NCBI GenBank assembly: GCA_976551045.1
Contig: CDPCPM010000233.1
Coordinates: 7,006,001 to 7,070,000, forward strand
Direction: 5' to 3'
Length of the DNA: 64,000 bases
DNA from: Glaucostegus cemiculus
Lineage: Eukaryota
This document shows positions 19,253 to 41,072 of the stretch, piece after piece. A program made the translations under genes and the position numbers. The notes below the pieces were generated by a model that saw only the letters and a list, made by a program, of their open reading frames with translations, did not search any database and was not told the origin of the DNA. Positions within the stretch are counted from its first letter, which is position 1, and every line of letters starts with the position of its first letter.

Positions 19253-19369
19253 ATCTAATGGAGGAGTCTATTCTCAATCATCAGTCATATGATTTAAATG
19301 CCGTTGAACAGTGGTATTTACTCAGTAATAATCTGCTAGTCAATGATCAGTCTGGATTTCCTAGAGAAT

Positions 19370-20445
19370 AACTTGACTCTAGACCTCACTACAACCTTGT
19401 TCCAAGTATGGAGAAAAGCCACTCATTTACCCAAGTGACATCAAAGAGCCCTTGTAAAATTGCAGACATCAGGAAATAAGAGGAAAACTCTCCACGATCT
19501 TGCACAAATAAAGATGACTGTAAATGTTGCAGGCCAAGTAGCCCACTTATAGGGATTCCTCAGGGAAATGTACAAAGTTTAACTATTTCCAGCTACTTCA
19601 TCAATGATCTTCCCTTTATCAGAGGCCAAAGGTGGGAATGTTTGATGTCATTTGCAATATCTCAGATAATGGCTTCTAGCTGCAGGCTGCAAGAGTGGAT
19701 GCCATTCAGGCCTGAACTGATGTGGCAAGTAACAGCTGCACCACACAAGCACCAGCCAATGACCACCTTTAACAAGTGAATGACTAATCAATTGCTCTAA
19801 CATTCAGAGGAATCACTGTCTCCAGATCCCCACTATCAACAGCTTGAGGAATATCACTGACCAGAAACTTAACTGAATTTGCCAGATAAATACTGTGACT
19901 AGAAGCGCAGATTAGAAGCTTGTTTTTTGCAGTGAGTGATTCATTCCCCAATTCTTCAAAGTCTTTCCTCCATCCACAACACATTCCAGCAATGTGATGG
20001 AATACTCTCCTGGATGAGTGCAACATCAATGGCACTCAATGTATTTAACACCATACAGGACAAACCAGCCAATTTGATTGCATCCTATCCACCAAGCTGA
20101 ACATTCATTCTCAGTACATTCAGGGTATTGCAGCGGAAACATGTAACATATGTAATGGCACTACAACAACTCAATATATGCCAAATACCTTATTAGAAGG
20201 ATGTAGCAATAAGGATATAGAAAGCTAATTGCAAGCTTCCTTCCAAGTCACATAAGTCACACATCATTCTGAAATATTTTGCCATTCATTTCTACTTGCC
20301 TACTGTTCAAAATCCAGGAATTCCCTGGAGGACGTTCATAATGAGGATTGCAGCTGATCAAGAAGGTGACTCACTATTCCTTTTTTGAGGGTCTGTAGAT
20401 ATGGGAATTAAATGCTATTCTTTTCTGTAACATTCACTTCCCCTA
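19370..20445 (+). mobile_element. Old, decayed CR1/L2-clade LINE 3' half (Deu-SINE partner type tail)
   Basis: RT-like remnants (GGGATTCCTCAGGGA..., CTTCATCAATGATCTTCCC) and 3' end CAGCTGATCAAGAAGGTGACTCAC...GGAATTAAATGCT. Confidence 0.6.
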
Positions 20446-20863
20446 AACAAAAAACACTTACAAACTTGCTGAATCCAAGTTTCATTCTTTGCTTATCAAT
20501 CATATCTCCTGGTCAATAAATTATTGCCATGTAAAACTTGAGGTTGAAGTATTATCATTGATTCTTAGCAGCCAGAATGGAGCGCTCATGCTGGGATCTG
20601 ATCAGAACAATGTGATCATTAACTTCTCTGACCTGTATTGACAGTTAATCTTTAAATTGCTCTGAAATAGTTAGATAGCATTTCACAAAGAATACAAATT
20701 CAATTTGCTATAACAGGGAGTTTTGGATATTCCTTCCTTCACCAATTCACTTATTGAAAATAACTGTATCTTTCAAATGCTGATATTTAACAGCTTTACT
20801 GAATGTACTTCTGATCAGCGCAACCTCTAACTTAATTTTCTTGTTCCTGTGTTTTACTTCTAG

Positions 20864-20977
20864 TACTTGAAATATATTGGCAATTTGAAACATGTTGAAA
20901 CAAAGACAGATGGTTCAGCTAACTTCGGATTTGATATGGAACTCAAGAATCCAGATCTGAATATTTTCCTATATAAG
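20864..20977 (+). CDS. IGFN1: IGFN1 coding exon 8 (YLKYIGNLKHVETKTDGSANFGFDMELKNPDLNIFLYK)
   Basis: Pyrimidine tract plus CTAG acceptor, AAG|GTGACT donor, phase 0-0; first half of an Ig domain. Confidence 0.92.
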
Positions 20978-21330
20978 GTGACTATGAGTTGTTGTTTGAT
21001 AAAAATTTTAACAGTAAAATATAACATATTAGATATGGGCAAGAGCATTCAATCTGAATTTACCCAAGGCACCAAACTCATTATTTTCCATCTAAAAGTT
21101 ACTTTCTCAGATATCACCTTACCATATAATACTTTATCTTCAATAATTTAGTTACAGTAATGCAATATGTTCTCCCTATGATCATTTGTCCAGCTTTCTT
21201 CCTTTCTTTCAATCTTCCAGATGCAAGGTTTAGATTAAAATGTGCCTTTTCACATTTTTGTGAATGTAATAGGTGGGGTTCATCTGGATCAGATGCCTAT
21301 CACTTTTCTCCTTACTAATTCATATTAGTA

Positions 21331-23757
21331 TGGGATGGGAATGGGAATGAGTTTGTTAAGTGTGTCCAGGATGGATTTCTAGAGCAGTATGTTGACAAAC
21401 CGACTAGAGGGAATGCTGTGTTGGATCTGGTCTTAGGAAATGAACCGGGACAGGTGAGAGATCTACTAGTGGGTGAGCCTCTGGGAGACAGTGATCATTC
21501 CTCGATAAGCTTTAGAATTGTCATGGACAGGCATAAGTGCAGGGAGCGTAGGAAGATATTCAATTGGGGTAGGGCAGACTATGAGGCTATAAGGAAAGAG
21601 CTTGGGAGTGTAAATTGGGAAGTCCTTTTTGAGGGGATGTGTACTGTAGAGATGTGGACGTTGTTCAGGGATGTTTTACAGGATGTTGGGGACAGATATG
21701 TTCCGGCAAGACGGAGGAAGAATGGAATAGTGAAGGAACCGTGGGTGACAAGAGAGGTAGAAAGACTGGTTAGGAGGAAGAAGGAGGCTTACGTAAGGTG
21801 TAAGTGGCAAGGCTCTGATGTGGCCCGTGAGGAGTATAGTATAGTGAGAAGGGAACTTAAGAAAGAGCTGATGAGAGCTAGAAGGGGACATGAAAAGATG
21901 TTGGCTCGTAGGGTTAAGGAAAATCCCAAGGCTTTTTTCTCTTATGTGAAGGGCAAAAGGATGACTAGGGTAAAGGTAGGGCCTATTAAGGACAAAGGTG
22001 GGAGGATGAGCCTGGAGGCGGCAGAGGTAGGGGAGGTACTTAATGAATACTTCTCCTCTGTATTCACCAAGGAGAGGGGCCTTGATGATGTGACAGTGAG
22101 TGCTGACAAGGGTAATATTCTTGAGTATGTAGCTATAGAGAGGGAGGAGGTGATGAAATTGTTAAGTAGTATCAAGACTGATAAGTCTCCGGGGCCCGAT
22201 GGAATATTCCCCAGGCTGCTTCGGGAGGCGAGGGAGGAGATTCTTGATCCGCTGGTGAGGATCTTTGAGTCCTCGTTGTCCACGGGGATGGTGCCGGAGG
22301 ATTGGCGGGTAGCGGATGTTGTTCCCTTGTTTAAGAAGGGCAGTAGAGATAGTCCGGGAAATTACAGACCGGTGAGCCTCACGTCTGTGGTAGGTAAGCT
22401 GTTGGAAAGAATTTTGAGGGACAGGATCTATGAGCACTTGGAGAGTCATGGACTGATTAGGGACAGTCAGCATGGCTTTGTGAAGGGAAGATCTTGCCTC
22501 ACGAGCCTGATAGAGTTCTTTGAGGAGGTGACGAGGAAGCTTGATGAGGGCAGGGCGGTGGATGTAGTGTATATGGATTTTAGTAAGGCGTTCGATAAGG
22601 TTCCTCATGGCAGGCTTCTTCAGAAGGTCAGAGGTCGAGGTATCCAGGGGAGGTTGGCTGTGTGGATAAGAAATTGGCTTTCCTGTAGAAGGCAGAGGGT
22701 TATGGTGGAGGGAGTGCCCTCGGATTGGAGGGCTGTGACTAGTGGAGTCCCGCAGGGATCGGTTCTGGGGCCTCTACTCTTTGTTATATTCATAGATGAT
22801 TTGGATGAAGGAGTGGAGGGATGGGTTGGTAAGTTTGCAGATGACACCAAGATCGGTGGTGTGGTAGATAGTGTGGAGGACTGTAGGAGCTTACAGGGGG
22901 ATATTGATAGGATGCAGAAATGGGCTGACAGGTGGCAGATGGAGTTTAATCCGGAGAAGTGTGAGGTGGTGCACTTTGGGAGGACAAACTCCAGGACAGA
23001 GTATAAGGTAAATGGTAAGGTTCTTGGCAGTGTAGAGGAGCAGAGGGATCTGGGGGTTCATATCCACAGTTCGCTCAAAGTTGCCTCGCAGGTGGATAGG
23101 GCTGTTAAGAAGGCTTATGGGATGTTGGCTTTTATAAATAAAGGGATTGAGTTCAAGAGCAGAGAGGTGATGATGCTGCTTTACAAAACTCTAGTTAGGC
23201 CGCACTTGGAATATTGTGTTCAGTTTTGGTCGCCGCATTATAGGAAGGATGTGGAGGCGTTGGAGAGGGTGCAGAGGCATTTTACCAGGATGATGCCTGG
23301 ATTGGGGGGTATGGAATATAAAGAGAGGCTTAAGGTGCTAGGGCTCTACTCATTAGAGAGGAGGAGGATGAGAGGGGACTTGATAGAGGTGTTTAAGATA
23401 TTAAGAGGAATAGATAGAGTTAATAGTCAGCGCCTCTTTCCCAGAGCGCAGATGCTCAAGACGAGAGGGCATGCCTTTAAGATAATTGGTGGAAAGTATA
23501 GGGGAGATGTCAGAGGGAAGTTTTTCACCCAGAGAGTGGTTGGTGCATGGAATGCACTGCCTGGGGTGGTAGTGGAGGCAGATACATTGGACAGGTTTAA
23601 GAGATTGTTAGATAAGCACATGGAAGAATGTGGAATAGTAGGATATGAGGGTGGAAAGAGTTAGTTTGGGAGATGTTTGTAGGATGGCACAGCTTGATGG
23701 GCCGAAGGGCCTGTTCTGTGCTGTATTGTTCTATTGTTCTATTGTTCTATTGTTCTA
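21331..23757 (+). mobile_element. Young 5'-truncated CR1 LINE: C-terminal part of endonuclease, complete RT, 3'UTR and (TATTGTTC)4 tail
   Basis: Frame uninterrupted from 21331 to the stop at 23662-64. Motifs PTRGNAVLDL, GDSDH, YRPVSLTS, DFSKAFDKV, QGSVLGPLLF and FADD. 3'UTR hairpin GGCCGAAGGGCC; 8-bp microsatellite tail at 23724-23755. Confidence 0.97.
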
Positions 23758-23877
23758 TATTAAGTGTTAGAATTTGGTTGGGTTAAACGCTGTAAAAGTA
23801 AATTTACATCTAAAAGAGTAAATATTCTTAACTTCTTCATTCCATTTGGATTCTGTTTGGTTTGTAATTTGTTAAAG

Positions 23878-24046
23878 GATGAAGAAATGATCCCATATTC
23901 AATGAGTGAGGATGGAAAGCATCACCTTAAAAAGGTTGGCAAAAGGTATAACTTCTGTATCAAGGATCTTCAGCCAGATGATATTGGAATGTACAAGATA
24001 AATGTTGAAGATGCAGATGTTTTTGCAACAGAGGTTGATATCAGTC
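23878..24046 (+). CDS. IGFN1: IGFN1 coding exon 9 (DEEMIPY...DDIGMYKINVEDADVFATEVDIS)
   Basis: TAAAG acceptor, C|GTAAGT donor, Ig DxGxY motif, phase 0 to 1. Confidence 0.92.
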
Positions 24047-24150
24047 GTAAGTGCTGTTTCTGCCTATCACAGAATTAACGCCTGCACAATCTGATAATAT
24101 GCCTTCATTATAATTTTAATAGCAATGTTCATTCTTTTTTGTAATTGCAG

Positions 24151-24420
24151 ATATTCCTGTTACTTTCAAACAGCCATTGCAAGAATGTAAATGTGCTGAA
24201 ACAGAAGATGCTGTCTTTAAATGCACCATTTCAGTACCCATACCTGTAGAGTGGCTATACAAAAAGATGACACTGGAAGATAGTGATAAGTATCAGATTA
24301 TGGTCTCACCAGATGGTTTAACACATTGTCTGATTGTAAAGGATGTACGTCCTGTAGACAAAGGAGTGTATACCATTATAGCAGGAGCTGGATCCTCAAG
24401 TGCATACCTAACAGTGGGAA
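24151..24420 (+). CDS. IGFN1: IGFN1 coding exon 10, Ig domain (HIPVTFKQPLQE...DKGVYT...AYLTVG)
   Basis: TTGCAG acceptor, A|GTAAGT donor, 270 nt, phase 1-1. Confidence 0.94.
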
Positions 24421-24764
24421 GTAAGTCTAACCTGTTATAAGGACATACCACTTTTGTAAAATCTGACTTCATTTGCATCTTTCATGAGTATACCTTCAGA
24501 AACAACGCACCTAAGTATTACAAGTGTGAACATTGGAATTAAGAGTTAAAAAGCAACAAAGTCATATTGCAATTCTGTTGTAATGATCTGTAAGAGAGCC
24601 ACTTTACTAGACCAGGACTCATACTTCAAATATACCAAGTTGATGTTAACTCTCTCTGTCAGTCAGGGAACATGGGAAGCATGTGGTGATGTTACTGTTT
24701 TCCAGAGTGGGCAGGCATTAGTGACAGATGTGCTCATTTGTTTAAGATATCAAGATCATAAGAA

Positions 24765-25440
24765 TCCAAAGCAGTAGACTGTATACTTTTCAAGTCTGCT
24801 GTACCATTCAGTAACATCATCGTTGATATTCTCTCTCTACTTTTCCCATTCCTATAGTCCCTTGGTGTCCAGAAGTCTGTCATATCAGTCTTATATATTC
24901 CTGACAAATGAGCATCCTCGGCCCTTGAGGATTCCAGTCCAATGATTCACAGCCTCCTGACTTAAGAAATTTCTGGCTCATCTTAGTCTTAAGTGGCTGG
25001 ACACTTATCCTGAATCTGTGACGCCAACTGTGGACTTGAATTCAAGTAAAATACATTCTCTCATTTTCTCTCCTTTCAAATATTATAGGAAGTTTATAAT
25101 TTTAAATACCATCTCTTAATCTTCGGTATTCCAGAGAATATATAAGTCTGTCCATTCTGCTCAATCTCTTCTCATAAATCAGCCATCTCCTCCCAGGGAT
25201 CAATTTATTGATTTTTTTTTGTTGCAGTCTTTGCGGTAATTTTATCTTTTCATAGATGAAGAGCTCAGAATTACTTAGATATTGTCTAATCAAATCATAT
25301 TATAAGATTCATACAGCAGCTCACTTGCAACAAAGATGATTATACCATTTGCCTTCCCAACTTCTTATTGTATCTGTAAACTTCTTTGTGATTTGTATAC
25401 GAGGCCATGTAAATCCCTCTGAATGCTAGTATTTATTAAT
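24765..25440 (-). mobile_element. Decayed CR1 LINE 3' portion
   Basis: Minus remnant LIPGRRWLIYEKRLSRMDRLIYSLEYRRLRDG and a CR1-type 3' end. Confidence 0.65.
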
Positions 25441-25554
25441 TTCTCACTTTTTCAACTGTTTTGCTTTTTTATTCTTCTGACCATATTTCTCCATATTACA
25501 CTCTATTTGTCATCTTCTTGCCCATCCACAATCTTCTTATACCAGTTATATCTT

Positions 25555-25801
25555 ACAGAAGGATCTATTGCAGAAGGAGGCCGTTTGGTCCAGCAAGTCT
25601 GTACCAGCTCCTGTCTTCTTGTTTCCTTGTAGCTCCTTTAATTCATTTTGCCATTAACCTATTTGAGAGGATAAGTTACAGCACCCACAGGAAACACATG
25701 CAGTCATGTTGGGAACATGCTAACTCTGTACAGATAGCACTTGAAGTACTGAACCTGGGTTCCTGGAGATGTTAGATAGCAGAATTAAGTGTTGTACCAC
25801 C
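25555..25801 (-). mobile_element. Decayed V-SINE
   Basis: Reverse complement shows a tRNA-like head (CCCAGGTTCAGT), GTTTCCTGTGGGTGCT V-domain, and tail GACTTGCTGGACCAAACGGCCTCCTTCTG. Confidence 0.6.
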
Positions 25802-28730
25802 ATATCACCCTTTCCCTTTGGATCTTCTTAGTCCTCTCATCACAGTCCCCTGCATCTTTGTAAGATCAGTGCATTCTTGGATTTATTACAATTAGTTTCT
25901 TCATCTAAGACATTAGCTTAGATTGTAAATAGTTCAAGTACAAGCACTGATTCCACTAGTTGCATTGACACATCCCAAATTGAAAATATCCCAATTATTC
26001 CCATCCTCTGTCTTTAGTCACTGAGTTAATCCCCAGTGCATGCAAACATCTTGTCCTCATCTCATTATCCTGAATCTTGTGTAAAAATTCCTTGCATTAT
26101 ACCTTATGTCTTCTGAAAATCCAAAATTATATTACTTACCTATCTCCCTGGCTAGAAATATATTCAAAATCATTCTGAAAGATCCAACATAATTTCCCTT
26201 GCATAAAATGGTTCTGATCCTGTCCAATTGTGTTCTGATGTTCCATGTACCTTGTTCTCTGACCCAAGTAATAGATCATTGTCTAATGGTAGATCTCTAG
26301 CTATTTCCCTGCGCTATATTAGACCAACTGACTTAGATTTCCCTATTTTCTTTTTCTTTTAAACAGCAGTATTATAATAATGACCTCCCAAAACAGGAGA
26401 TTTTTCTAGAACTTTGCATTTATCATTTCTGGAGCACTGCTTTTAAAAGAAAAATAATTTTCAGCGGTTAACAAATGTAAAATTTAAAAAGACAAACAGA
26501 ATTAAAAAAGGATTCATCTGTACTGGTTCATTTTCTTGTTGCATAACCTAATAGGTTCATGGATTTACAGGCTTTAGTCCTATTACATTTTCCAAGGTTT
26601 GTGATTTATTTATATAAATTATTACAATATTTTTCTTTGCATATACTATTAGATTACTTTCATTTGCCTAGAAATTGGATATTACTCTTTTTTTTGGTAT
26701 GGTAAACATGTACTATTTACAGCACTAATGCCCAGTAACATTCCCTGAAAAAGTTTCTAGGTTTGGTCAAAAATACATGAAAAGTAGGACTATTGCAATA
26801 TAATGCATGAATTCATGCGTAAAAACAGGACCTCTTATGCAAACTTTGTAAATTCCATGTTATTACCCCACAATACAGCTGGCACATGCATCATCACTCA
26901 CTCCTGTTCCCATTACAGCCACAGTACAGTGATGGAAAAGTCCACAGCAAAAGGGAAGGAAAACATAGGGAAGAGGGGCCACTGCACTCTACATTTCTGG
27001 TAGAGGACCATTGACCTGAAATATTGATTCTGATCGGCTCTACATAGATGTTGATTTTTTTTCTCTCTCATTTTCAGTTTTTATTTTGGATTTCCAGCAT
27101 CTGCAGTGGCTTGCTTTTGGACAGAAAAGCAAGGCCTCAAGATGTGTAATGTAGGATATCAATATGACAGTGTAGACTCATTAATTGGGATCTCATTCCA
27201 GAACCGTGTGCAAGCACCCCTTGTTTTTTTTGTGATGAAATAATGAAAGTCAAAGGTTTCTCTAAAAATCTCCAATTCTGTTGGCAATGAAGGAAATATG
27301 AGCAGTCCAAGATATGATATCATTAGTGATACAACTGAGAGTGGGCAAACATTAGTTGTGCTGAGGTGAATCATGCCCAAACGTTCAAACATGAACTAAG
27401 TGACTTTTATGGTGCATTACAAATGAATAAAAATGGGTCCAATTTTTAGGCAATTTTCCTTTTTTTCTTCTTTGTCAATGTTTTAATCATCCTTTGCTGA
27501 TTTCTGACACCTTGACCTAAGTAATCTTTTTGGGAACTTTGCAAGCATTTTTTAATCTCATCTTGTCCTTCTCTAATTAGCCACAGTTGGACTATTTCTT
27601 CAATTCTTCTTTTTATTCTGCAGGCGAGTGTATATTCTTTAGGAATTATAAATTATATATTTTATTGATTAACATTGCCTATATGCCATTACATATTTTA
27701 ATCTAATTTCCCAGTTCACCTTTGCCAAATGCATTTTTCTTCCTGATTATGGTAACAATTTATAAATACAGATGGTAAGGGTATGTGCCTGAACTAGTGA
27801 AAACCTATTTATATACACAGATCAAGCTCCAATAATGTCCTTGGGGTGTAATTTGCTATTTTAACCTGAATGGGTTGCAATGTAGTTCTGGTGTTGAGCC
27901 AAACCTGCTGGGAGCAGCACTCCGTGTGAAATAACCAGCAAAGGAAATCATTAAGGGAAGGAGTATTCCTTGATGCTCCGTAAAATCCTTGGTCTTCCTT
28001 GTCCCAATGATCAGCTTCAATCTGTTCACCCCATACCCAACCAGTCCCACTACATTAATACCACCACTGCATTTCAGTCCATTCAATTATCTTTCAATGT
28101 CATTGTCCACAGAAGGAAGCTATCAGTGACTAAGAATGGGAGTACTAGCCCACTAAAGCACTCTCTCTTATTACATAAGAGGTGAAGAGGTTGATAAAAG
28201 GAATGACAGAAGCAATGCTGAAGTATGGGTTTTGGATAGATAGGAAATGGGTAGCAGAACTTTTAAGAGAAAGGGACAAAAATGTCAACAGACCAAGAGT
28301 GAGAGTTGAAGGGCTAGATTATATAATTAGCAGAAACTATTACTTATATTAGACAGCCAAAAGATAGTCACAAGACTAATCTGCAAAAAGCTGATGCCGG
28401 GAGGAATGAAGGCTTGGTAAATATTTCCATCATTTGTAGACTGTGAAAACTCTGAGAAAAATGGGTGAGTAAGTGTATGAGATTAACAGAGGTTTGCTAA
28501 TACAACCTAAAATCTGAACCATTTATAGAGTAAAACATTCAAAAATGCTTATTTAAAAAATGTATACACTACTTACATATATTTTTTGCATTTCTTTCTA
28601 ATTCCTTAAATATAGTTTAAAAATTGTTAGTAATTCAAATTTCTATTATTTGGAATATTTCTCTTTTTAATCATTTTAATGATATACAAATTATTACATG
28701 ACCAATAATGCAATCTACCTTTCATTTTAG

Positions 28731-31340
28731 AAAATCTAGGTACTACCTCACGTCATTCAAGAAATGGAAAGGACTCTTCGGATATTAATCTGAAGCAAGA
28801 TTTGAATGACTTAAAGAAAGATGGCATAAAAGGCACCACAGACAGATTACCACATGACAAAGATATGACTAAAGGTGGTCTGAAGAGAGGAAATGATCTC
28901 TCAGAAGATGACAGAACTCTGTTTGGTAGAAGAGGTTTGCAGGACTCTGCAGCAGATGGACTGCATGGAGATGATATAAGTGACATTGGGGAATATGGCA
29001 GAATGGGAAAAGATGGTAGTGGAATTGGAAGTGATGATTTTGATGGATTAGGTGGAATAGGTAAAGATGGCATGGGCAGACTCGATGGCAGTGGAAAAGA
29101 TAGCATGGGTGAATTGTATGGAATGGGAAAAGATGGCAAGGGCGGTTGGGATGGAATGGATAGAGAAGGAATAGGAAAAGATGGGAAAGGCAGACTGAGG
29201 GGGATGGGAAATGAAGGCAAGGATAGTTGGGATGCAATGGGAAAAGATGGAAAGGGCAGTTTGGGTGGAATGGGAAAAGATGGAAAGGGCCAATTGGGTG
29301 GATTGGGATTAGATGGTATGGATAGTTGGGATGGAATGGGTAAAGATGGGAAAGGCAATTTGCATGGAATGGGAAATGAAGGCAAAGACAGTTTGGATGG
29401 AATGGGAAAAGTTGGGAAAGGCAGCTTGCATGGAATGGGCAAAGAAGGAAGGGGAATTGGCAGTAAAGGCAGACTGGATGGATTGGGAAAAGATGGCATG
29501 GGTGGATTAGGTGGAATGGGAAAAGATGGGATGGGTGGTTTAGGTGGAATGGGAAAAGATGGCATAGGTAGATTAGATGGAATGGGAAAAGATGGCATGG
29601 GTGGATTAGGTGGAATGGGAAAAAGTGACATGGGTGAATTAGATGGAATGGGTGGTTTAGATGGAATGGGAAAAGGTGGCATGGGTGGATTAGATGGAAT
29701 GGGAAAAGATGGGATGGGTGGATTAGGTGGAATGGGAAAAGGTGGCATGGGTGGATTAGATGGAATGGGAAAAGATGGGATGGGTGGATTAGGTGGAATG
29801 GGAAAAGGTGGCATGGGTGGATTAGATGGAATGGGTGGATTAGGTGGAATGGGAAAAGATGGCATGGGTGGATTAGGTGGAATGGGAAAAAATGGGATGG
29901 GTAGATTAGGTGGAATGGGAAAAGATGGCATGGATGGATTAGATGGAATGGGTGGATTAGGTGGAATGGGAAAAGGTGGGATGGGTGGATTAGGCGGAAC
30001 GGGAAAAGGTGGTATGGGTGGATTAGGTGGAATGGGAAAAGATGGGATGGATGGATTAGTTGGAATGGGAAAAGATGGCATGGGCGGATTAGATGGAATG
30101 GGTGGATTAGGTAGAATGGGAAAAGATGGGATGGGTGGATTAGGTGGAATGGGAAAAGATGGCATGGGTGGATTAGGTGGAATGGGAAAAGGTGGCATGG
30201 GTGGATTAGATGGAATGGGAAAAGATGGCATGGGTGGATTAGATGGAATGGGTGGATTAGGTGGAATGGGAAAAGATGGCATGGGTGGATTAGGTGGAAT
30301 GGGAAAAGATGGCATGGGTGGATTAGGTGGAATGGGAAAAGGTGGCATGGGTGGATTAGATGGAATGGGAAAAAATGGCATGGGTGGATTAGATGGAATG
30401 GGTGGATTAGGTGGAATGGGAAAAGATGGCATGGGTGGATTAGGTGGAATGGGAAAAGATGGCATGGGTGGATTAGGTGGAATGGGAAAAGATGGGATGG
30501 GTGGATTAGATGGAATGGGTGGATTAGGTGGAATGGGAAAAGGTGGCATGGGTGGATTAGATGGAATGGGTGGATTAGGTGGAATGGGAAAAGGTGGCAT
30601 GGCTGGATTAAGTGGAATGGGAAAAGATGGGATGGATGGATTAGGTGGAATGGGAAAAGGTGGCATGGGTGAATTAGATGGAATGGGTGGATTAGGTGGA
30701 ATAGGAAAAGGTGGCATGGGTGGATTAGGTGGAATGAGAAATGATGGGATGGATGGATTAGGTGGAATGGGAAAAGATGGCATGGGTGGATTAGATGGAA
30801 TGGGTGGATTAGGTGGAATGGGGAAAGATGGCATGGGTGGATTAGATGGAATGAGAAAAAGTGGCATGGGTGAATTAGATGGAATGGGGAAAGATGGGAA
30901 AGACAGATTGGGTGGTATGAGACTTGGTGGTAAGGGCAGATTGGATGAAATAGGAGAAGATGGCATGGATGGATCAGAAGGAATAGGAAAAGATGGAAAG
31001 AGCAGATTGGCTGGAATTGGAAAGGATGGAAAGCACAGTTTGGATGGAATGGGAAGAGATGGAAGGGACCGATTGGATGGTGGCCTTGATGACGTTGATG
31101 CCTTAAGTGGAGGACTGTTGAGTATGAGTGGAAGTGCTGGAGCTGCAAAAGGTGGACGTGCCTCATCAGCAGGCAATAAAACAGGTTTACTGGGAGATGA
31201 TAAAATGTCAATCCAAGATGAATCCATGGCTGAGGGTATACAAGATCTGTTGGCTTCTGATTTATCCCAGAGTGCTAGAAGGAGAAAAGGAAGACTTTCA
31301 GAGAGTGAATTTACAGCAGACCAGAATCTCAAGAACAAAG
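28731..31340 (+). CDS. IGFN1: IGFN1 coding exon 11, giant 2610-nt low-complexity Gly/Met-rich exon
   Basis: TTTCATTTTAG acceptor, AAG|GTAAAT donor, open for 870 codons, phase 1-1, in frame with exons 10 and 12. It sits where IGFN1 is known to have a large disordered insert between its N- and C-terminal globular blocks. Confidence 0.9.
29480..30905 (+). repeat. Coding minisatellite: 33-nt unit GGAATGGGAAAAGATGGCATGGGTGGATTAG(G/A)T interleaved with 18-nt half-units
   Basis: About 37 copies of the 11-aa unit GMGK(D/G)GMGGL(G/D) and about 11 copies of GMGGL(G/D), counted by eye. Diverged 11-aa copies continue out to about 28990 and 31080. Confidence 0.95.
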
Positions 31341-32595
31341 GTAAATATACACTGGAATAAATCTTATAATAATGAGATAAAATAGTGCATTTCTGTGATA
31401 ATGGATATGTATCTTACTCCTGAAACTATACCTTTAGGTAACTGCTTTGAGACGGCATCACAAACCTTTGGCTAAAGTCTGGTTCTTATCAGACTTCTGG
31501 AATCTTACTCCTCCTGAATTGATCATTTCTAGATATTAGAACTCTGGTCCAGTGTTTTCATTTTGTATGCACAATAATTCTGGTGCAAGGTGATTCCAGG
31601 ATAATCTGTACTTGCAGAAGTGATTTGGTTCCCAAACTTCTGCTCAAATATCTTCAACTTAAAATCTACCTTGAAGTAGTGCTTTAGAACTTATTTTAAA
31701 GAATTGCTTCATAATATTCCATGTGATGTAATGTTATTAATGCCTCTGAGAAGTGAGCAAATTTAGTCATTCACATGCAGCATCATGTGAGCAACCTGAT
31801 TTAAAAATACTGAAAATGACATTGAAATTGCTGAACCATTTGTATAGCATAGGTGCTTTCTTAGTATTTAAGAAAAGGTGCTCGTTCAATCTCTTTAAAA
31901 TTATACCTTGTCGTGTCCTTGTGTCCAAACAACTAATTTCAATAAGCTCCACAGAGCCCCAAAGTAGTGAAAAATTGCACTGGTTATTACTGCAATCAGC
32001 AGGCCATGACACAAATGATTATAGTAACATGAATTATGCTGGATATAATTTCTTCTTGAAATTCTCTGATTCTTTTCTACTGGTTAGGCCAAATTACAGT
32101 GTGTAAAAGAAGTGCAATCCAGTAGAAAGTCCAGACCACAGTACCTTCGACATCTCTTCATAATAACAAATTGGTCCATTACTTGAAACAGAGCCTTTCA
32201 TGGTTCCACTTATTTGATGTTATATCATAATGTTATTAATTTAAGCTGGAAGGACAGAAAGGTCAAAATATCTGGGCATTTTTAAAATTGCACTTGAAAT
32301 AATCTCCTCTGTCATAATTATGCATGGATAAAGAAATTTATGTTGTATTAAAATAACTTTCAAAAATGAGACCTAGTTGTATTAAAGTTTTGACCCCAAT
32401 TCAAATTATGTTAGAAATCAGATATTACTGAAAGATATGAACATTTAACCCAATACAGAAAATGTCATTAAAAATCAAATGATTAACATTATGCCATGCA
32501 ATATTAGTCTCTTTCACTCAATTTCATAGATCAGATTAATTTTTGACTTGTATCAGGCACTTCATTCACATCAGATTTTCTTTGCGTTAATACAG

Positions 32596-32717
32596 GAGCT
32601 CACCACTTCAAAAGTGGTCTTACAGACATCAGTGCCAGGAAGGGAGAGGCAGCTGAACTTTGTTGTGTGATGAAGAATGAAGAAGCACAAGGTTCCTGGT
32701 TTAAGGATGGTAAAAAG
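32596..32717 (+). CDS. IGFN1: IGFN1 coding exon 12 (GAHHFKSGLTDISARKGEAAELCCVMKNEEAQGSWFKDGKK)
   Basis: TACAG acceptor, AAG|GTAGCT donor, WFKDG Ig motif. Confidence 0.93.
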
Positions 32718-33629
32718 GTAGCTCAGAAACTGATAATTAAATATTTTTAAATTGAGTGAATAACTTAGAAGCTCCTGTTTACTTAAGGAATAAATAGGGC
32801 CCAATTCACCTCTGCAACACATAATAAGCAGTGTTGTACAAACAAAAATCACATAAATGAGACATTAACTAATTTTATCTCTGCTTCTGAGTTTTTGCAA
32901 ATAGTTAATAAAGTAGGAAGTTCTTGTGGGAGAAGTTTGTGAAATCTTGTACATCCAAATTGCTAAGTGACATTAATATATGCACAATACACAAAATTAA
33001 TTTCTGATTAGATTTTCATTGATGTTGGTGTGAATCACAGTTTTGGTGTGAATCACAATTGTTGCTGTTGACTCGAAGAAGAACCAACCTGTAGTAAAGC
33101 CAAAGGCTCACTATATTTGAGTTATTTACATGGTGAGATGCATGTTTCCTACTGTTACTGACAGAGAGCTAAACAAATGTCTGACAAAAGTCAAAGTCAG
33201 GGTAATCTTCACTCATAGAAACCTTGCTCAGGACTCTTGCAGGCTGGCCCTACTGTGATATGCCACATGTAACACCTTACTGCACATAAATGAATTACAA
33301 AAGTCAAGAATATGTACCTGATATAAAAACAGAAGAAGCTGAAAAGACTTAGCAAGTTAGGCAGTATTTGCATAGAACAAAACAGCTAATGTTTCAGGTG
33401 GATGATTTTTCATTTGAAATAGGGAACGATAGGAATAAAACATGTCATACATTGCAGACTAAGGGTGGAATTCTCGATAGGACAAAAGGGAAGGATTGCA
33501 ATAGGGTGGAAATAGGAGGGATTGAATGGCACAAGTAATGGCTCTATGTGGGAAAGGCTGGTGAAGGCAAGTGAATAATAGGACTGGACAGAGACCTTGT
33601 GGTTTATGAAAAAGACATTTTTTTCATTT

Positions 33630-34720
33630 TGAGATTGCAGCAAGCAGAATGGATAACATAAGGCCAGATGATGTGGTGTATTTGTCCTTTCAGACATTTA
33701 ATACTGTACCACATGAGACTATCAAAAGAAATTTGAGTAAATGGGTTTGGGAGCATTATACTAGAATGGATAATGGACTAGTATTGGAAAGAGAACAGAG
33801 ATTAGGAATAAACAGTTTATTTTTAGATTGGGAGCTGTAACCAGTGAGATGTCTCAGGAATCAGTGCTGGGGCCCCAGCTCTGCAAATCTACATCAGTAA
33901 TTTGCGTGAGGGGATCAAATGTAATATATCCAAATGTGATGATGATACAAAGTTAGGTGGCAATGTGGGCAGTGAAAAGGATGCAAAAAAGGCTTTGGGA
34001 GTTATAGGCAGACAAAGTTGATGAGCAAGGCAGCTGGAATATAATGAAGAAAAATGTGAGGTCAACTAGTTTGTGTAAAAAAAAGAAAGGCATACATTTT
34101 TTACCCAGAAGGTGATTGAAAGATGTTTGTGGTCACAGGATCTTGGTTGTCTATATACATGAAGCATTGCAAGTTAACATGCAGATTCGGAAGCAAGTAA
34201 AAAGGCTAAAGATTGCAAATGAATTTAAGTCAATGAGTGGAGCTCTCTTTTTACAATTATAGGGGACCTGGGTGAGACAATATCTAAAATATTGTACACA
34301 GGTTTAATCACTGTACCTTAGGAAAGATTTACTTGTTATAGAAGGAATGCAGTGGAGGTTAGCCAGTTTGATTCCCAGGATGGTGGATTTTTCTTATGAG
34401 GGGATGGTTTTAAAGGGATTAACGAGGTGGTTACAGTGTTAATGTTTTCCATGGCTGAGGTGTCTTGGATGTTAAAGTCAGTAGTCGGCCATTCAGGACA
34501 AAGTTGGAAAGAAATTTCTTCAACTGGTGTGGCAGAAGGCTGTGGTGGCTCAGTTGCTCAGTATATTCAGCGTTAGATCTTTAGATAGTGAAGAAATCAA
34601 GGAATATTGGGTTAATGGAGGAAGTGGCACAGGAATAAAAGATCAACCATGGTCTTAATGAATGGCAGAGTGGTAATTAGGGGTTGGCCACTTCTACTTC
34701 TACTTATGTTCTTACGTTCA
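33630..34720 (+). mobile_element. Decayed CR1 LINE (RT to 3' end)
   Basis: Remnants DVVYLSFQTFNTVPH, CAGGAATCAGTGCTGGGGCCCCAGCT and GATGATACAAAGTTAGGTGG; tail CTTATGTTCTTACGTTC. Confidence 0.8.
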
Positions 34721-36626
34721 CGGTGGGTGTGTCTGTAAATCAAGCGAGCTGTGGGAGTCCACCGGCTTGCTATGCATATTGATCTACCTCCTGAAATAGA
34801 GAAGAGAAAAATCACAAAAGAGTAGGGAAGCACAGAAATGAGCAATGTGAAAGTGAAAGAAAGGTGGAAATTGATGAATAAGATGATGAAAGTTTTGAGT
34901 TCTGTACTAGAACAGGAAGCAGCACTGACTGGCAAAATGGGAAATCTGCATTTACACCAGGAAGGAGCATTTGACTGTCATGCAAAGCTTCCAGAAGTGC
35001 AGGTATTCATAAAGGGAGTTCATATCCTTTCAGGCACCTCCCTGACAACTCTTTCCATGAGTTCCCTTTGTCAAGAAGGGGTCTCTATTCTTCAGAAGAC
35101 TATGAACTGTTTTCTGTATCCCTAGGAAGAATCTGCTGACTCTCTCCCACCCATATAGCCTGCACTAATTCCTTGGAGAATGTCCCCAATATCTGAAAGA
35201 ATATCAATTCTGGTGTCGTGTGATCCAATAAAGGCTTCTCCTTGAGTTCAAAGTCATGAGGAAAAGTGCTCCTGACATGGTAAATTTGACTCCTAATACT
35301 GACTATTCCTGAAGCGGAAGAGAGTTACATGAAGAAACTTGTGTTTTGGACTGTTTGCCTACAAATCTCATTTTTATAGAGTTTTTTGTTCAGAGTTAGG
35401 GAGATTGCCCACCAACGCTGATTTAATGTTGGAAAAAATGTGAACTTCTTGGCCTTGGTTTCTTCATTACCTTGCTTGTAAGGATATACAGAATGGTTAC
35501 TGACAATCATTCCATCCTCATTATGTGTACCTGCTTTCAATGCAAAAAACTTTCCCATGAGAGAAAATTCCATGTAAATCATATGTGATCTAAATCCATC
35601 AATAGCATTTATTCTTGGGAACTCAGGGAATTATGTGGTCACAGGTTAGTTGATTTTGCCAGATATAATTTCTGTTATCCTTCCCCCTTTCATTGGCATT
35701 GGAAGATTGGCCTAGGGCTGTTGTCCTGGCTGACTTAAAGTAAAGGACAAGGAAGAATGTCTGTGCCCTCCCAGGTGTCTCCTCACCATCACGGGGTAAC
35801 ATATCTCACTTTAGTAGATGTTGCAGTGGTGGTTCCTGAAAAGAAAATGTACCAGCAGACTCCAGTAGGGTGCAGTCCATTGCAACCACCTGAGAGTGTC
35901 AAATAGCATCTCATCCAAACTTCAGTAACCATTAAAGAAGGGACTGAGTGCTGATCTATAATATCATCAGTCTGCAATCTCTAGCCTGATTCCAGGACTT
36001 CATTTCTCCAAATTCCATTGACTGTTTCTTCGGTGTTGGCAAAAGTGCTACTGATAAGTTTGGATGCTTCTCCAGAAGCTTTTGAAGTTTTGCCCCCCAT
36101 GCATCATACATTACTGTGATGCTGGCTTTAATTCCCACAATACTGCACGGGAAACAATTCCAAGGTTTCAACCTACCAGCAATGAAACTATTAAACATCA
36201 TAAAAATAGTGTCATATGGTGGAATTGAAGCACCTTGGATCTATCTTATCATTTTCAAATCTTTGCTGGTAAGTGTATCATAATTCATATTGAGGAGAAA
36301 GAGACTGGATATATGAAGTTCTCTTCATGGGTAATTACACTGAGTAATTATATTGGAGATAAGTTCAGAAGAATTTTGTGCATTATAATACAGCAATTTA
36401 TAATGAAGAAATACCAACAGATTGAAATAACTTTATTCGTGTATCTGGAAGTTGTCATTATTTGTATCACCTGCTATGTTTCTTACATTATAATGTCCCC
36501 AGAGTTTCAGTTGAGAGTTATTGCCTTCAATAAAGAATGTTCTGTTTATCTGTCTACCTCAATTTATTTGTTTACTCAAGCAGCTACACAATAGAACCCA
36601 TAGATAATCCATTTGTGTGCTCATAG

Positions 36627-36768
36627 ATTACCTCCGGAAATGGAAAGATTATTACAAAGGAAGGAGCAGTACAAAAATTGACCTTAGCTCATGTCCAAGA
36701 GGAGGACTCGGGGTTATATACATTTGAATCAGATGGAGGAAGAACAGAAGCTTCACTATTTGTTAAAG
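36627..36768 (+). CDS. IGFN1: IGFN1 coding exon 13 (ITSGNGKIITKEGAVQKLTLAHVQEEDSGLYTFESDGGRTEASLFVK)
   Basis: CATAG acceptor, G|GTAAAT donor, DSGxY motif. Confidence 0.93.
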
Positions 36769-37464
36769 GTAAATTGAAATGCTCATGAAATTTGCGGTAG
36801 CTTTTGTGACACTAAATTCAATTTAAATCCAAAATAAACCAACAAAGACACGCAACAGTAGGAGAAAAGAAAATCTGACAGAGTTCTAACCTGTTAATAG
36901 AAATCCTTCCCATGATATCTTTAATTTTCTTCTCTATAAGTTTACTTACAATTGTAGAAGTACAATAATATTGCATCTGAAGGCTTTATGAATCTTCTCA
37001 TCAGTTCAGATTGCTTAGTAGTGTAATTCATAGGTCACCAATGTATTCCATAATACATGGATATTTCACCCACTAGATACTTATTTTTTAGAAGTGGCTT
37101 TTTTATGTTAAATCAAATATTCAAAGATTTTGTAAATGTGTTGGCTGGAGGCCAGCTCCAATGTTAGCTTTATAAATCAAAGTGACTAAGTTTCTTTGTA
37201 CTTTGTCAAGTCAGTAAAGCATTCGTTATAATCATGAAAAAAGGGAATTCTTATTTATTAATGCCTTGGAACTTATGAGCCTAGTGCTTTAGTCTTGCCT
37301 TTTGGAATATACATTATGATATTAATTTATAAGAACACCATTATCCCATTCTCTAGAAGGATATAAATTGCAGTTACTCCTATTAATGCACTACAAATAA
37401 TCTTCAAATTTTGAAGCTAAACTAATTCATTTTGCTTTGCCTGCATATAAGTAGTGATGGAAAG

Positions 37465-37685
37465 ACAGAAAATGATGAAGATACTCAGCAAGTTTGACAG
37501 CATCTATGGAGAGAGAAACAGAGCTAACATTTCACGTTGGTGATCTTCTGTCACAGAATGAAGCTCTGTTCATCCTACAGTCAACCTCTTTTTCTTTCTC
37601 CAGAGAGGTTGCCTGACTTGCTGCGTAACTCCAGAATTTTCTAGTTTTATTGTGGATTACCAGCATAAGCAGTCTGTTGCTTTTT
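37465..37685. repeat. Penelope pLTR-derived fold-back element
   Basis: Arms ATACTCAGCAAGTTTGACAGCATCTATGGAGAGAGAAA and TTTCTCCAGAGAGGTTGCCTGACTTGCTGCGTAACT are imperfect inverted repeats. Confidence 0.7.
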
Positions 37686-38141
37686 GATTACAATAAATAC
37701 TGACTTTGGCTAATTGGCCAAATAGCCAGGATCTATGGTGTTATGTTGATGCAACCTGATATCTATTAAGTACCAATATAGCATTTGTATGTTTTAACCA
37801 TTCAGATGCATTCAGTGAAAGATTCCATATATTGCACATTAATATGCTTCCTTCAGCAATTTCAAGTGAAATTAATTATGAGACAAATAGCATAAATCCC
37901 TAATATGTTGGAGTTTAAATGAACTAACAAAATGCAGTTTCCCTGTACAGCATTATTAGCCACTCATCCTGCAATTCATCAATGTATGTACCCTTACCTT
38001 CAATGTGTACCTGCACATAGTAAGTGATAGCAATAAAACTCTTTCAGAATGCATAATATTTTAAGAGAATTGTATTTCTAACTATTCATTTATTGTGAGT
38101 TGTTGTCCTTGATGCTCATTAGTGCTACTGGTTAACATCAG

Positions 38142-38441
38142 ATCCACCAGAATTTGATCAGGATGTGCTTGACCAACTGGGAAAGAAACCTATACTTGTT
38201 AAGGCTGGTCATACTGCAACAGTGAAAGTACCATTCGCAGGAAAACCACCAATGAAGGTGTCTTGGTACAAGGATGGGGATGAACTGTTCAACGACAACA
38301 GGATCAAAATTGATAATATTGGAAATTTTACACGATTGTCAATCTCCAACTGCAATAGAAAGGACAGTGGAAATTTAACAGTTAAATTGAAGAATGAAAG
38401 TGGTACAGCAAGTACAAACAACATTAACCTGTGTGTCACTG
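38142..38441 (+). CDS. IGFN1: IGFN1 coding exon 14, Ig domain (DPPEFDQ..VKAGHTATVKVPFAGKPPMKVSWYKDG..DSG..KNESG)
   Basis: ATCAG acceptor, G|GTAATG donor, 300 nt, phase 1-1. Confidence 0.95.
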
Positions 38442-38713
38442 GTAATGTATCCTTTTATTCTTGTTCCTTTTGAAATACTTTCCACTTCATCTTCACTCAC
38501 CTGGTAGACATATCAAATTCAGATCCTGTCTGGTTAGGTAACACCTCTGTTCATATTTAGGTTATAAATAGGCCCTTGTGTGTTGATTTTTCCCCTTTGC
38601 CTAGCACCAGCCCCAGGTTGCTCTGTTTAGTTCACGGGGCTGGTAACTGACAGCAGTGGAGACTAATCCCTCTCATGGTTCTTTTCCCCATGACTGGAAA
38701 AAAAAGCTGGACT

Positions 38714-38782
38714 TAGAACATAGAACATAGATACCTACAGCACAATTCAGGCCCTTCGGCCCACAAAGCTGTGCCGAACATG
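38714..38782 (-). mobile_element. Ultra-short CR1 3' end (second subfamily)
   Basis: Reverse complement CATGTTCGGCACAGCTTTGTGGGCCGAAGGGCCTGAATTGTGCTGTAGGTATCTA(TGTTCTA)2. Confidence 0.8.
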
Positions 38783-39418
38783 ACCCCATTTCCATTTGAC
38801 TTCATTTCCATTTAGTTGAGATTGGAAAATGCTTAGAGTGCCTATGGTTTTCTGCATGGGCATCTCAAAGTTGTTCCACTGTGTTTTCATAACTATTGTT
38901 ATTATAACTGTAAGAATGTTTAAGGATCAATATTATTATGGGTAGCAGTATACTTTTGTACTATTTCAGACACTAATGCACCATATCCTGTGCAGAAATC
39001 ACTCATTACATCTCTTGGTCATCTGAAAATAAACACAATGTACACTATAGATATGAGTTTTAAAGTCTTATTAAGAAACAGAGTTCAGGGGATGGTACAG
39101 GGTTGTCTGAAAATGAACAATACAGGGTACTAGTACCATGATCAAGGCCCATGAGTTTCAGAGCCATTATGAATTTTGTTAATTTTTGCTGTGTTGAATA
39201 TAAAAGAGCATTATCAATGTGTTGCCGGAATATAGAATGTGGGGTTGTAACATTCCATAAAGTCTCTTGAATCTGCAAATATTCATAAATTGCCAAGTTT
39301 TCCTTGATATCACCTGAAACCTTTACCCCTTAGCATGTCAACTCTTATGCCAGGAAAAATAATATTCAGTTTGATTTGAAACCAAATTATTGAAGGTTTT
39401 ATTGATGATCTTTTTCAG

Positions 39419-39718
39419 ATAAACCACAGATACCTCAGGGGCCGGTAGAGGTTCTTGAAAGTTCTGAAGGTTGTATCTCCTTTAAATGGAAACCACCCAA
39501 AGATGATGGCGGTAATCCTATAAAAAACTACATAATTGAAAGACAACAGGTAGGAAGAAGTACGTGGACTAAAGTTGGTGAAGTGGATGAATCAAATACA
39601 ATGTTTTCTTTTACCAAAGTGGAACCTGGAAAGAATTACAAATTCAAAATTTGGGCAGTGAATTCTGAAGGTGTAAGTGAGGCATTGGTATCAGATGCAG
39701 TCACAGCTGGTAGAAGAG
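39419..39718 (+). CDS. IGFN1: IGFN1 coding exon 15, FN3 (DKPQIPQGPVEV..WKPPKDDGGNPIKNYIIER..YKFKIWAVNSEG)
   Basis: TTTCAG acceptor, G|GTGGGT donor, titin/MyBP-C type FN3 motifs. Confidence 0.95.
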
Positions 39719-39816
39719 GTGGGTTCTTGTAATGTTGAACCAAGTCCTGCTCATTTTTATATAAAGCTCCAAGATAGCCACCAAAAATAACATTTGGTGA
39801 TAAATATATTTTCCAG

Positions 39817-39990
39817 CTGTTCCTGGACCTGTTGCAACACCAAAAATCATGAATGCAAACAGCAAGTCCATTACATTGTCATGGTCTCCCCCAAAAAAGA
39901 TTGGAAGTTCCAGCTTAATTGGTTATGTCATAGAAAAGCGCAAGAAGGGCAGCAACACATGGACTGTTGTCACTGACCCACCAATTACAG
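39817..39990 (+). CDS. IGFN1: IGFN1 coding exon 16, first part of FN3 (AVPGP..ITLSWSPP..GYVIEKRKKGSNTW)
   Basis: TTCCAG acceptor, G|GTAATA donor. Confidence 0.94.
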
Positions 39991-40091
39991 GTAATAGAGG
40001 CTTAAACCATTTTCAGAAAACTACTCAAGAATTATTAACTATTTAATGTATGATGCATTCATACCAATACTTAACAACTAATTTCACACGC

Positions 40092-40265
40092 AGAAACAAG
40101 AATGTGTGAAATAAATACAGCAGGTCAGGCAACATCTGTGGGAAAGAAACAGTTTCTCTTCCCAATGAAGGGTCCCTGACCTGAAATGTTCATTCTGTTT
40201 CACAAAATGCTGCCTGACCTGCTAAGTATTTCCAGCATTTTCTGTTTTTATTTTAGATTTCCACG
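40092..40265. repeat. Penelope pLTR-derived fold-back element
   Basis: CAGCAGGTCAGGCAACATCTGTG ... CACAAAATGCTGCCTGACCTGCTAAG inverted arms. Confidence 0.75.
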
Positions 40266-40943
40266 ACATTCGAGTTTTATTTATTTTCAACTTATTTCAC
40301 ATAACAGGTCACCATATTACTTAAGAAATAGCGAAGATCACAAACTCCATTTAGGAATCTTGCTAACATTTGAAGTGAATTTTAATGCTCTAAATTAATC
40401 TAGCCAACCTGCCAGACAACTACCATAAATGGGTGATAGCTAAAATCTCTGCCTCTGAGAAAAATGTTAAATGAGGCAAAATATTCACATTTATTATTTT
40501 GCCAGAAGAAAAATGTACTTTAGAATAAGATTGCATAAATGCCTTGGCTTTCAATTTTAGCATGATTTTAAAAGAATCTAGAATAAAATTAACTATCTAC
40601 ATACAAAGAGACATCTAGATTCAGAATGAAAAATAAGGAGTTCAATGGTATGGGTCAGTTTGGTCTGCATGTATACAATCATATCTGTACTTAACAAACC
40701 CATTTTAAGTACAACTTAAAGATTGGTACATTTAAATCACAATGTTCTGTTTTTGCTGAAGCTGCTGGCATACAAACAAATCAGGGACATTTATCTGAAT
40801 TCTTAGAATCTGAAAAGTTAAAAATTAAAAACCAACATCCGTTTTAGTGGTACATAATGTTCATTCATTGAGCTAAACAATGGGCATGAAAGCTTCTTGA
40901 GGTTGCCATGATTCCTAAAATGTTTTGGACCTATTTTACACAG

Positions 40944-41072
40944 AAAGGAATTGGACAGTCACTGATGTTGTTGAAGGGCTAGAATATGAATTCCGAGTGA
41001 TTGCAGTGAACTCTTCTGGTTTGGGAGAACCCAGCTGTGAAACTGATTCTGTGTTTGCTCGGGAACCCATAA
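40944..41072 (+). CDS. IGFN1: IGFN1 coding exon 17, second part of FN3 (ERNWTVTDVVEGLEYEFRVIAVNSSGLGEPS..AREPI)
   Basis: ACACAG acceptor, A|GTAAGT donor, YEFRVxAVN motif. Confidence 0.95.

Follow-up and report, generated by a model that had tools for sequence, protein, structure and literature searches.

The IGFN1 gene of a ray carries, among its immunoglobulin (Ig) domain exons, a giant exon with a core built largely from five residue types, and the question is what kind of chain this exon encodes and which of its properties have been kept. The exon lies at 28731-31340 on the + strand of a 64,000-nucleotide (nt) stretch of Glaucostegus cemiculus DNA (contig CDPCPM010000233.1, positions 7,006,001 to 7,070,000), which is called the window here. 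It encodes a tandem array rich in Gly and Met, the ray form of the central Gly-rich segment of IGFN1, which we consider, with somewhat better than even confidence, to be a disordered, length-variable and charge-balanced tether. The flexible spacer or spring proposed in an earlier note on this DNA would agree with this reading.

The giant exon encodes a Gly- and Met-rich tandem array

The exon spans 2610 nt (870 codons) and reads 869 codons without a stop in one + frame, with 70 and 44 stops in the remaining two + frames. It is bordered by an acceptor (ttttag before AAAATC) and a donor (AACAAAG before gtaaat). One frame of the minus strand is likewise stop-free, which we read as a by-product of the repeat. 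Both exon ends are in phase 1, so that exon 11 could be removed in frame. The homogeneous core of 455 residues contains 51.9% G, 17.1% M, 10.1% L, 9.7% D and 7.7% K, these five residue types making up 96%, with four Arg and with zero Pro, Phe, Trp and Tyr. The complete exon encodes 101 Met, 1 Pro, 3 Phe, 3 Trp and 2 Tyr, and its 869 residues include 17 Glu, 3 Val and 76 Lys. The sign of successive charges alternates at a frequency of 0.75 in the core and 0.63 in the exon, as compared with 0.50 ± 0.03 for the shuffled exon. Thus, the Gly/Met core put earlier at about 470 residues was confirmed at 455 (Gly 52%, Met 17%), and its freedom from Pro and aromatics as well as its alternating K/D charges were borne out by the composition count and the shuffles, respectively. 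The tryptic peptide DGMGGLGGMGK is predicted to arise 12 times from the core.

The core is assembled from 35 five-residue modules (GMGKD/G), each followed by a six-residue module (36 of these), and from 10 extra six-residue modules, resulting in 11-mers and 17-mers; the DNA units measure 33 and 18 nt. Tandem Repeats Finder detected a 33-nt periodicity together with higher-order periods of 117 and 150 nt. The 2.85-Gb genome contains 12 copies of a 30-base piece of the DNA unit, every one of them within the giant exon; the repeat is therefore not a dispersed satellite, and an origin from a dispersed satellite or transposon was ruled out. The + strand of the exon is extremely purine-rich (GC skew 0.84-0.90), and in the core TTA is the only Leu codon and AAA the only Lys codon.

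The gene is IGFN1 of a ray

The gene model was built from tblastn matches and splice signals, and its final short stop-codon exon was not located. With the junctions 24420>28731 and 31340>32596 the model is open for 2072 residues over 22 exons, and with exon 11 omitted it is open for 1202 residues. Pfam matches on the window exons were to I-set, fn3 and tri-helix bundle (THB) domains, and the THB exon also matches myosin-binding protein C structures. The exons are colinear with five full-length IGFN1 models, and the count of three N-terminal and eight C-terminal domains is that of mouse and human IGFN1. The globular part is 84-86% identical to the IGFN1 models of Hemitrygon, Hypanus and Mobula over ~1190 columns. 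In the trees, which were made with FastTree only from 32 and 43 selected proteins besides the window, the window protein is sister to Hemitrygon/Hypanus/Mobula (support 97) within batoids (support 100), and the order of vertebrates is as expected. The records named IGSF22 fall outside IGFN1 at support 99; in P0316, which is among these records, the insert site is taken by a further Ig domain. On the basis of the globular identity, the placement among batoids and the exclusion of the IGSF22 records, the gene is identified as IGFN1, as the earlier note had named it, of a ray that is sister to stingrays and mantas. The last Ig exon matches the genome at one more place (39% identity, G000:C23:4239246-4239563, + strand), which is probably a paralogue, for example IGSF22 or a myosin-binding protein.

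An 11-residue unit is common to cartilaginous fishes

When the exon was searched among longer proteins, 25 matches were obtained, comprising 19 chondrichthyan IGFN1 models and six weakly matching bacterial collagen-repeat proteins. The top period of the insert was 11 or a multiple thereof in all 19 chondrichthyan models, with the consensus GMGRDGRSGLD in chimaera, GMGKDGKGGLD in sharks and GMGKGGMGGLD in Mobula, and with the common frame G-M-G-K/R-D/G-G-x-x-G/R-L-D. The annotated models of the relatives have an uninterrupted reading frame, so the frame break in close relatives that had been considered as a refutation was not found. The 11-mer frame is seen, for example, in the models of Mobula birostris (P0001), Carcharodon (P0007) and Callorhinchus (P0016). 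The window differs from other chondrichthyans in having Asp5 in most units, often Gly11, and extra 6-mers that give 17-mers; 17-residue spacings occur seven times in the window and none is listed for the remaining chondrichthyans. The idea that this lineage had built the repeat could not be upheld, as the 11-mer is shared by 19/19 chondrichthyan models and Gly-rich arrays occupy the site in most jawed-vertebrate groups sampled.

The number of anchored units per chondrichthyan insert ranged from 3 to 70, with skates and Narcine being degenerate, and insert length ranged from 330 to 1340 residues, while the flanking IGFN1 domains retained 44.9-85.6% identity. Unit position 7 is Lys/Arg in 13 of 15 species outside the clade of the window, the other two being Narcine, with Ser, and Scyliorhinus, with a tie. 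Met occupies this position in 31 of 40 units of the window and in 67/70 and 32/34 units of the Mobula models, and Met and Val are mixed in Hemitrygon (32 units, 15 with M and 14 with V) and Hypanus (26 units, 13 with M and 8 with V). As judged from these models, a second unit Met in place of Lys is thus confined to the clade of this ray, and the stingrays have either it or Val. The position-7 Lys was lost together with an Asp, in myliobatiforms as D5>G and in the window at either D5 or D11, two losses that tend not to coincide there (1/13/4/3, Fisher p=0.025, for copies that are not independent).

Different Gly-rich units occupy the same site in other vertebrates

Bony-vertebrate inserts were collected by two further protein searches (the best 120 of 592 and the best 120 of 806 matches). 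In total, 170 inserts were measured, and 95 of them exceeding 250 residues were counted as long after three fused teleost models (P0027, P0028 and P0127) had been dropped; the six bacterial proteins as well as P0030 and P0051, in which no anchor was found, were also excluded. The named rows hold no frogs or zebrafish, and that the insert is a single exon in other species was inferred from protein models only. Unit length was 17 in the coelacanth, 16 in sturgeons, 21-26 around YGKDG in lizards, birds and alligator, 23 with GKSG in the turtle and 18/36 around GY[RK]DGL in mammals, and one teleost had an Ala-rich 13-mer. A musk-deer model has an insert of 2249 residues, and two coelacanth models differ by 393 residues inside the array, the copy number being assembly-dependent. 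The protein models thus indicate that Gly-rich arrays of differing units are present at the IGFN1 site in most jawed-vertebrate groups sampled.

In spite of the different units, several bulk features recurred. Gly was at least 20% in 64/75 long bony-vertebrate inserts, net charge per residue was within 0.03 in 88/95 long inserts, and the commonest unit had a net charge of 0 in 15/15 non-mammalian arrays. All five separately expanded unit types were neutral, which would be seen in roughly 0.9% of cases under random signs. Furthermore, G-K/R-x-G was found in most units of 14/15 non-mammalian arrays, the teleost being the exception, and not in those of mammals. Met made up 2.7-12.5% of the 19 chondrichthyan inserts (12.5% in Mobula) and 0-5.4% in 75/75 long bony-vertebrate inserts. 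On the composition of the inserts compared, the features common to them are therefore a high Gly content, a scarcity of Pro and a net charge close to zero, and Met content is not among these.

The exact sequence of the repeat seems to be loosely held. Among the copies in the window, 18 alleles were non-synonymous (107 sites) and 7 were synonymous (36 sites; p=0.80), so that purifying selection among the repeat copies was not detected in this comparison of low power; no stop allele was found among the copies as compared with 1.7 expected (P=0.17). A universal Gly-X-Y triplet code was rejected, being significant at p<0.05 in 5/13 units and missing from coelacanth, sturgeon, egret and mammals, and so was a universal GKDG motif, which is not in the units of manta, stingray, coelacanth, sturgeon, turtle and mammal.

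Several inserts differ from the ray array in ways of their own. Perfect Gly-X-Y runs reach 46 triplets in the gecko Sphaerodactylus (P0112) and 38 in the ground squirrel Urocitellus (P0046), which are better candidates for a polyproline II (PPII) or collagen-like chain than the ray repeat. In birds and alligator (P0162, P0175, P0164 and P0170), (P/L)YGKDG(L/V) is nearly fixed in 15-35 copies with variable Gly/Ala/Val spacers, which brings to mind the Tyr-Gly motifs of the resilin type. Teleost inserts (P0107, P0277 and P0080) are Ala-rich, with a neutral 13-mer or with AAADK runs followed by a Gly/Ala tract, so that a helical spacer can probably occupy this site. Most of the 64 inserts of 70 residues or fewer belong to mammalian models and measure 50-65 residues rather than zero (e.g., P0075 and P0137); that of Mus caroli resembles the two ends of the long insert joined, either by internal splicing or as a modelling artefact. 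A protein named IGFN1, XP_032836792.1 (P0285), which its accession range suggests to be of lamprey, forms a long branch outside jawed-vertebrate IGFN1 and has a fourth Ig domain followed by a Gly/Asp-rich insert with 37-residue repeats, and the low-complexity insert may predate jawed vertebrates.

The chain is predicted to be a disordered coil

AlphaFold gave a predicted local distance difference test (pLDDT) score of 48 for 165 core residues as a single sequence and of 38 for the exon with 20 sequences; no residue exceeded pLDDT 70 in either run, a failed prediction being weak evidence. Pfam assigned no family to the giant exon, PDB sequences gave compositional matches only (a spidroin construct, E 1.8e-7, and dermcidin, E 0.059), and the best ESM Atlas score for the exon, 0.77, is at the level of chance. 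The low pLDDT, the lack of a Pfam family and the position, which is that of the mouse segment (PMC7584501, in its accessible part), together support the suggestion that the exon is the disordered IGFN1 insert. As a coil, the exon product would have a radius of gyration of ~11 nm and a contour of ~330 nm, calculated with the standard polymer formulas on which such size estimates rest. The Gly/Met-rich tails of GroEL/Hsp60 have been described as 41-47% non-cooperative PPII (PMC12571646, available in part), and by analogy this is likely to be the state of the ray chain.

Splicing and known biology of the segment

Statements on published IGFN1 work are limited here to the accessible parts of the sources cited. 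The central segment of mouse IGFN1 has been termed disordered and is spliced out in IGFN1_v1 (PMC7584501, PMC5493368). The mouse protein is expressed in muscle and localises to the nucleus and the Z-disc, and the insert-free isoform already displays both localisations; the function of IGFN1 was stated to be unknown (PMC5493368). A meeting abstract reported that the three N-terminal domains suffice for Z-band and nuclear targeting (PMC2712976). In humans, a haplotype carries a 108-bp insertion in IGFN1 exon 12 (PMC10475782), which would be one 36-residue unit. The insert is removed exactly in isoform models of bichir, reedfish and rodents, and no insert-free chondrichthyan model was present among the records examined. 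Isoform models of the chimaera vary in array length by 33 and 66 residues, suggesting that transcript reads covered it.

Discussion

In the tether reading, the insert would set the spacing of the three N-terminal versus the eight C-terminal domains. Selection would act on bulk properties, i.e., on Gly, lack of Pro, balanced K/D and a small hydrophobic residue every few positions, with the exact sequence and the copy number left outside selection. The array would have grown and been homogenised by in-frame duplications of 33 and 18 nt, and the abundance of Met would go back to a replacement of Lys by Met at unit position 7 that took place in the common ancestor of stingrays, mantas and this ray and was copied through the array. 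The product would be a coil of the dimensions calculated above, partly in PPII, and would act as an entropic spring only with both ends anchored, whereas the N-terminal anchor alone has been reported. The occurrence of different units at the same site, while the flanking domains stay conserved, was counted in favour of the tether, as were the orthology and position of the exon, its low pLDDT and lack of a Pfam family, the variable insert length, the near-zero charge of units and long inserts, the joint loss of Lys7 and an Asp, the exact removal of the insert in isoform models and the PPII content of the GroEL/Hsp60 tails. A bolder version, possible although unlikely, is that IGFN1 is an overlooked second elastic element of vertebrate skeletal muscle: a protein resembling myosin-binding protein C, its ends connected by a splice-switchable, Pro-free, charge-neutral Gly spring with a contour of roughly 125-800 nm. 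Jawed vertebrates would have rebuilt this spring several times from different units that obey the same physical rules, Met being the hydrophobic residue used by rays.

Several observations weigh against the tether. The charge pattern was picked after the data had been viewed, the figure of 0.009 for it is rough and repeat copies are not independent. The mammalian 18-mers average -0.33 and -0.79 per unit in two arrays, and the third array yielded one unit. Salamanders, lungfish, bichir and bowfin have short, weakly repetitive or non-repetitive inserts, and those of salamanders are acidic (-0.06 to -0.08). Met as the consensus at unit position 2 in 19/20 chondrichthyan rows, and a second Met gained separately by Mustelus at another unit position, leave room for a preference for Met. 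The insert-free isoform of Igfn1 partially rescued Igfn1-mutant myoblasts (PMC5493368), and the segment is therefore dispensable for that function. Neutral change from copy to copy fits a tolerated passenger equally well.

Such a passenger would be a weakly constrained, skippable linker exon in which minisatellites grow by slippage, with no adaptive meaning beyond frame and solubility. The near-neutral change and the expectation of merely 1.7 stop alleles are compatible with it, as are the fourfold spread of insert length in chondrichthyan models, the short or non-repetitive inserts of amphibians, lungfish and bichir, the human exon 12 insertion and the mouse rescue cited above. We nevertheless hold it to be unlikely, as arrays of differing units have arrived alike at a high Gly content, a low Pro content and a net charge of zero, G-K/R-x-G recurs in most units of nearly all non-mammalian arrays, the 11-mer frame extends from chimaera to rays and the exon flanks are alignable across sharks and rays. 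The chain might instead be a neutral polyampholyte, rich in Gly, that forms condensates at the Z-disc or in the nucleus, where Met and Leu, or Tyr in the case of birds, lizards and mammals, would serve as weak stickers. The neutral, alternating charges, the hydrophobic residue ahead of G-K-D-G (Met in sharks, Tyr in sauropsids) and the mouse localisation would suit this. Aromatics and Arg are the strong stickers, however, and the core has no aromatics and four Arg in 455; well-mixed charges would favour solubility, and the insert-free isoform reaches both places anyway, so that we rate condensation as quite improbable. As a third possibility, each x-G-K-D-G-x turn could bind one partner with avidity along a filament. 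Several inserts of sharks, chimaera and the window indeed contain 28-79 copies of G[KR]DG and five lizard inserts contain 13-39, as against ~0.4-3 expected, and bird inserts contain 9-35; the sauropsid spacers around it vary from 21 to 26 residues, and a shuffled sauropsid unit holds the motif ~1% of the time. The motif is replaced by GKGG in mantas, stingrays, coelacanth and sturgeons, by GKSG in the turtle and by Y[RK]DG in mammals, it is missing in amphibian inserts, and the accessible parts of the IGFN1 literature consulted name no partner, which makes a binding array very unlikely.

The suggestion that the methionines make the chain redox-tunable or a sink for reactive oxygen species fared poorly. 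The ~100 Met might scavenge oxidants or tune stiffness upon oxidation, and the count of 101 in the exon, the one Met per unit across the class and the second Met in the ray clade and separately in Mustelus speak for a role. The low Met of every long bony-vertebrate insert and the exchange of Met7 with Val in the stingrays Hemitrygon and Hypanus speak against it, and the enrichment would be explained by a single base change, AAG to ATG, that was duplicated along the array; a redox element is in our view highly improbable. Any Met-rich coil is oxidisable, so that a reaction with H2O2 alone would be no proof of function. The least probable reading, to which we give hardly any credence, is a folded bundle of polyglycine-II helices or a collagen-like rod. 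In the window, the recurrence of Gly at lag 3 exceeds the frequency expectation 1.6-fold (unit shuffle p=0.024 for the window and p=0.010 for lizards), and the six bacterial proteins with Pfam collagen repeats match weakly. The lag-3 signal is not significant in 8/13 units tested, and AlphaFold returned no confident residue. Specifically, a cooperative fold of packed GGX/GXX helices was rejected on the pLDDT values in spite of GXX runs of up to 8 triplets, and a collagen-like triple helix on a longest Gly-X-Y run of 8 triplets in the window, register breaks each 11 or 17 residues, a core free of Pro and no Pfam collagen match.

Comparison with known systems places the ray exon within a known gene. 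The segment of mouse and human IGFN1 is Gly-rich and shares gene, position and in-frame removability with it, and many mammalian IGFN1 models are repetitive as well, with a period of 18/36 residues. In the accessible text of the published accounts the mouse/human segment is described as disordered or unstructured and a repeat is not part of the description (PMC7584501, PMC5493368, PMC2712976). The ray unit is a neutral, Met-rich 11/17-mer free of Pro and aromatics, whereas the mammalian 18-mers have Tyr, some Pro and net charge. The PEVK segment of titin is likewise a long, repetitive, disordered sarcomeric segment among Ig domains and is the proposed functional analogue. Its extension under load is established, whereas that of IGFN1 is hypothetical. 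By composition (1 Pro and 3 Val in the exon), the ray insert was rejected as a PEVK segment, and by analogy it may nevertheless work like one. Abductin has a Met/Phe motif. The elastomers, among which abductin is listed, share high Gly with the ray core, and are self-assembling and rich in Pro plus Gly in the available text of the source (PMC5424786). The ray core has a Gly fraction of 0.52 with 0 Pro and no Phe and lies inside an intracellular multidomain protein, and the resemblance is one of composition only. The Gly/Met-rich GroEL/Hsp60 tails are, in the accessible part of their description (PMC12571646), terminal 24-residue segments in the chaperonin cavity that lack K/D pairs, and they are not homologous to the ray repeat.

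A description of the IGFN1 repeat was not found in the open-access literature searched, subscription papers including the original IGFN1 paper being beyond its scope, and the available main text of PMC13243192 makes no mention of IGFN1. The surmise that the repeat was undescribed therefore appears to hold for that literature, and the repeat is present in public protein models. The gene, the segment and its skipping are already known; the interest attaches to the repeat pattern across vertebrates rather than to an elastomer specific to rays.

Features of the window

The coordinates of the mapped features are collected in Table 1. Intron 8 of IGFN1 contains, on the strand of the gene, a long interspersed element, which we take to be CR1-like, with an open reverse-transcriptase frame of 781 codons (21319-23664, +; Pfam RVT_1); after it, a (TATTGTTC)4.4 tract lies at 23724-23758, ~120 nt ahead of the exon 9 acceptor. 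A downstream gene (53807-54148 and 61392-62030, +) has a hydrophobic stretch close to its N-terminus and likely encodes a long coiled coil, presumably resembling IKBIP/CKAP4; it gave no Pfam family and a best ESM Atlas score of 0.89.

Table 1. Positions of the IGFN1 gene model, of selected exons and of the segments of the giant exon in the window.
Feature	Coordinates	Strand	Description
IGFN1 gene model	8033..49728	+	ATG at 8033; 22 coding exons; 2072 aa, stop-free
Exon 7	14078..14255	+	Tri-helix bundle (Pfam THB), a motif common to myosin-binding protein C
Exon 10	24151..24420	+	Ig I-set domain (third N-terminal Ig); donor at 24420
Exon 11	28731..31340	+	Giant coding exon, 11 of 22 mapped IGFN1 exons; phase 1 at both ends
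N-terminal flank of exon 11	28731..29000	+	Non-repetitive, ~90 aa, alignable across sharks and rays
Start of array	29001..29485	+	Degenerate 11-mers; in several, unit position 7 is Lys as in sharks (GMGKDGK)
Core of array	29486..30850	+	Homogeneous, 455 aa; 11-mers GMGK(D/G)GMGGL(G/D) and 17-mers with one extra 6-mer
End of array	30851..31080	+	Degenerate 11-mers
C-terminal flank of exon 11	31081..31340	+	Non-repetitive; basic RRRKGRLSESE patch; terminal ADQNLKNK
Exon 12	32596..32717	+	Beginning of first C-terminal Ig domain

The ADQNLKNK sequence at the end of the exon recurs close to the end of the coelacanth insert.

Significance

The largest segment of IGFN1, which has been treated as featureless, is a tandem-repeat chain in which the unit varies while Gly and charge balance persist. 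The ray core is the simplest version found and would offer a clean model peptide. If the chain is not load-bearing, it would be a coding minisatellite of the ordinary kind within a linker exon that was already known; if it is load-bearing, it would be a muscle spring besides the PEVK segment of titin, with a length variation that has been reported in humans.

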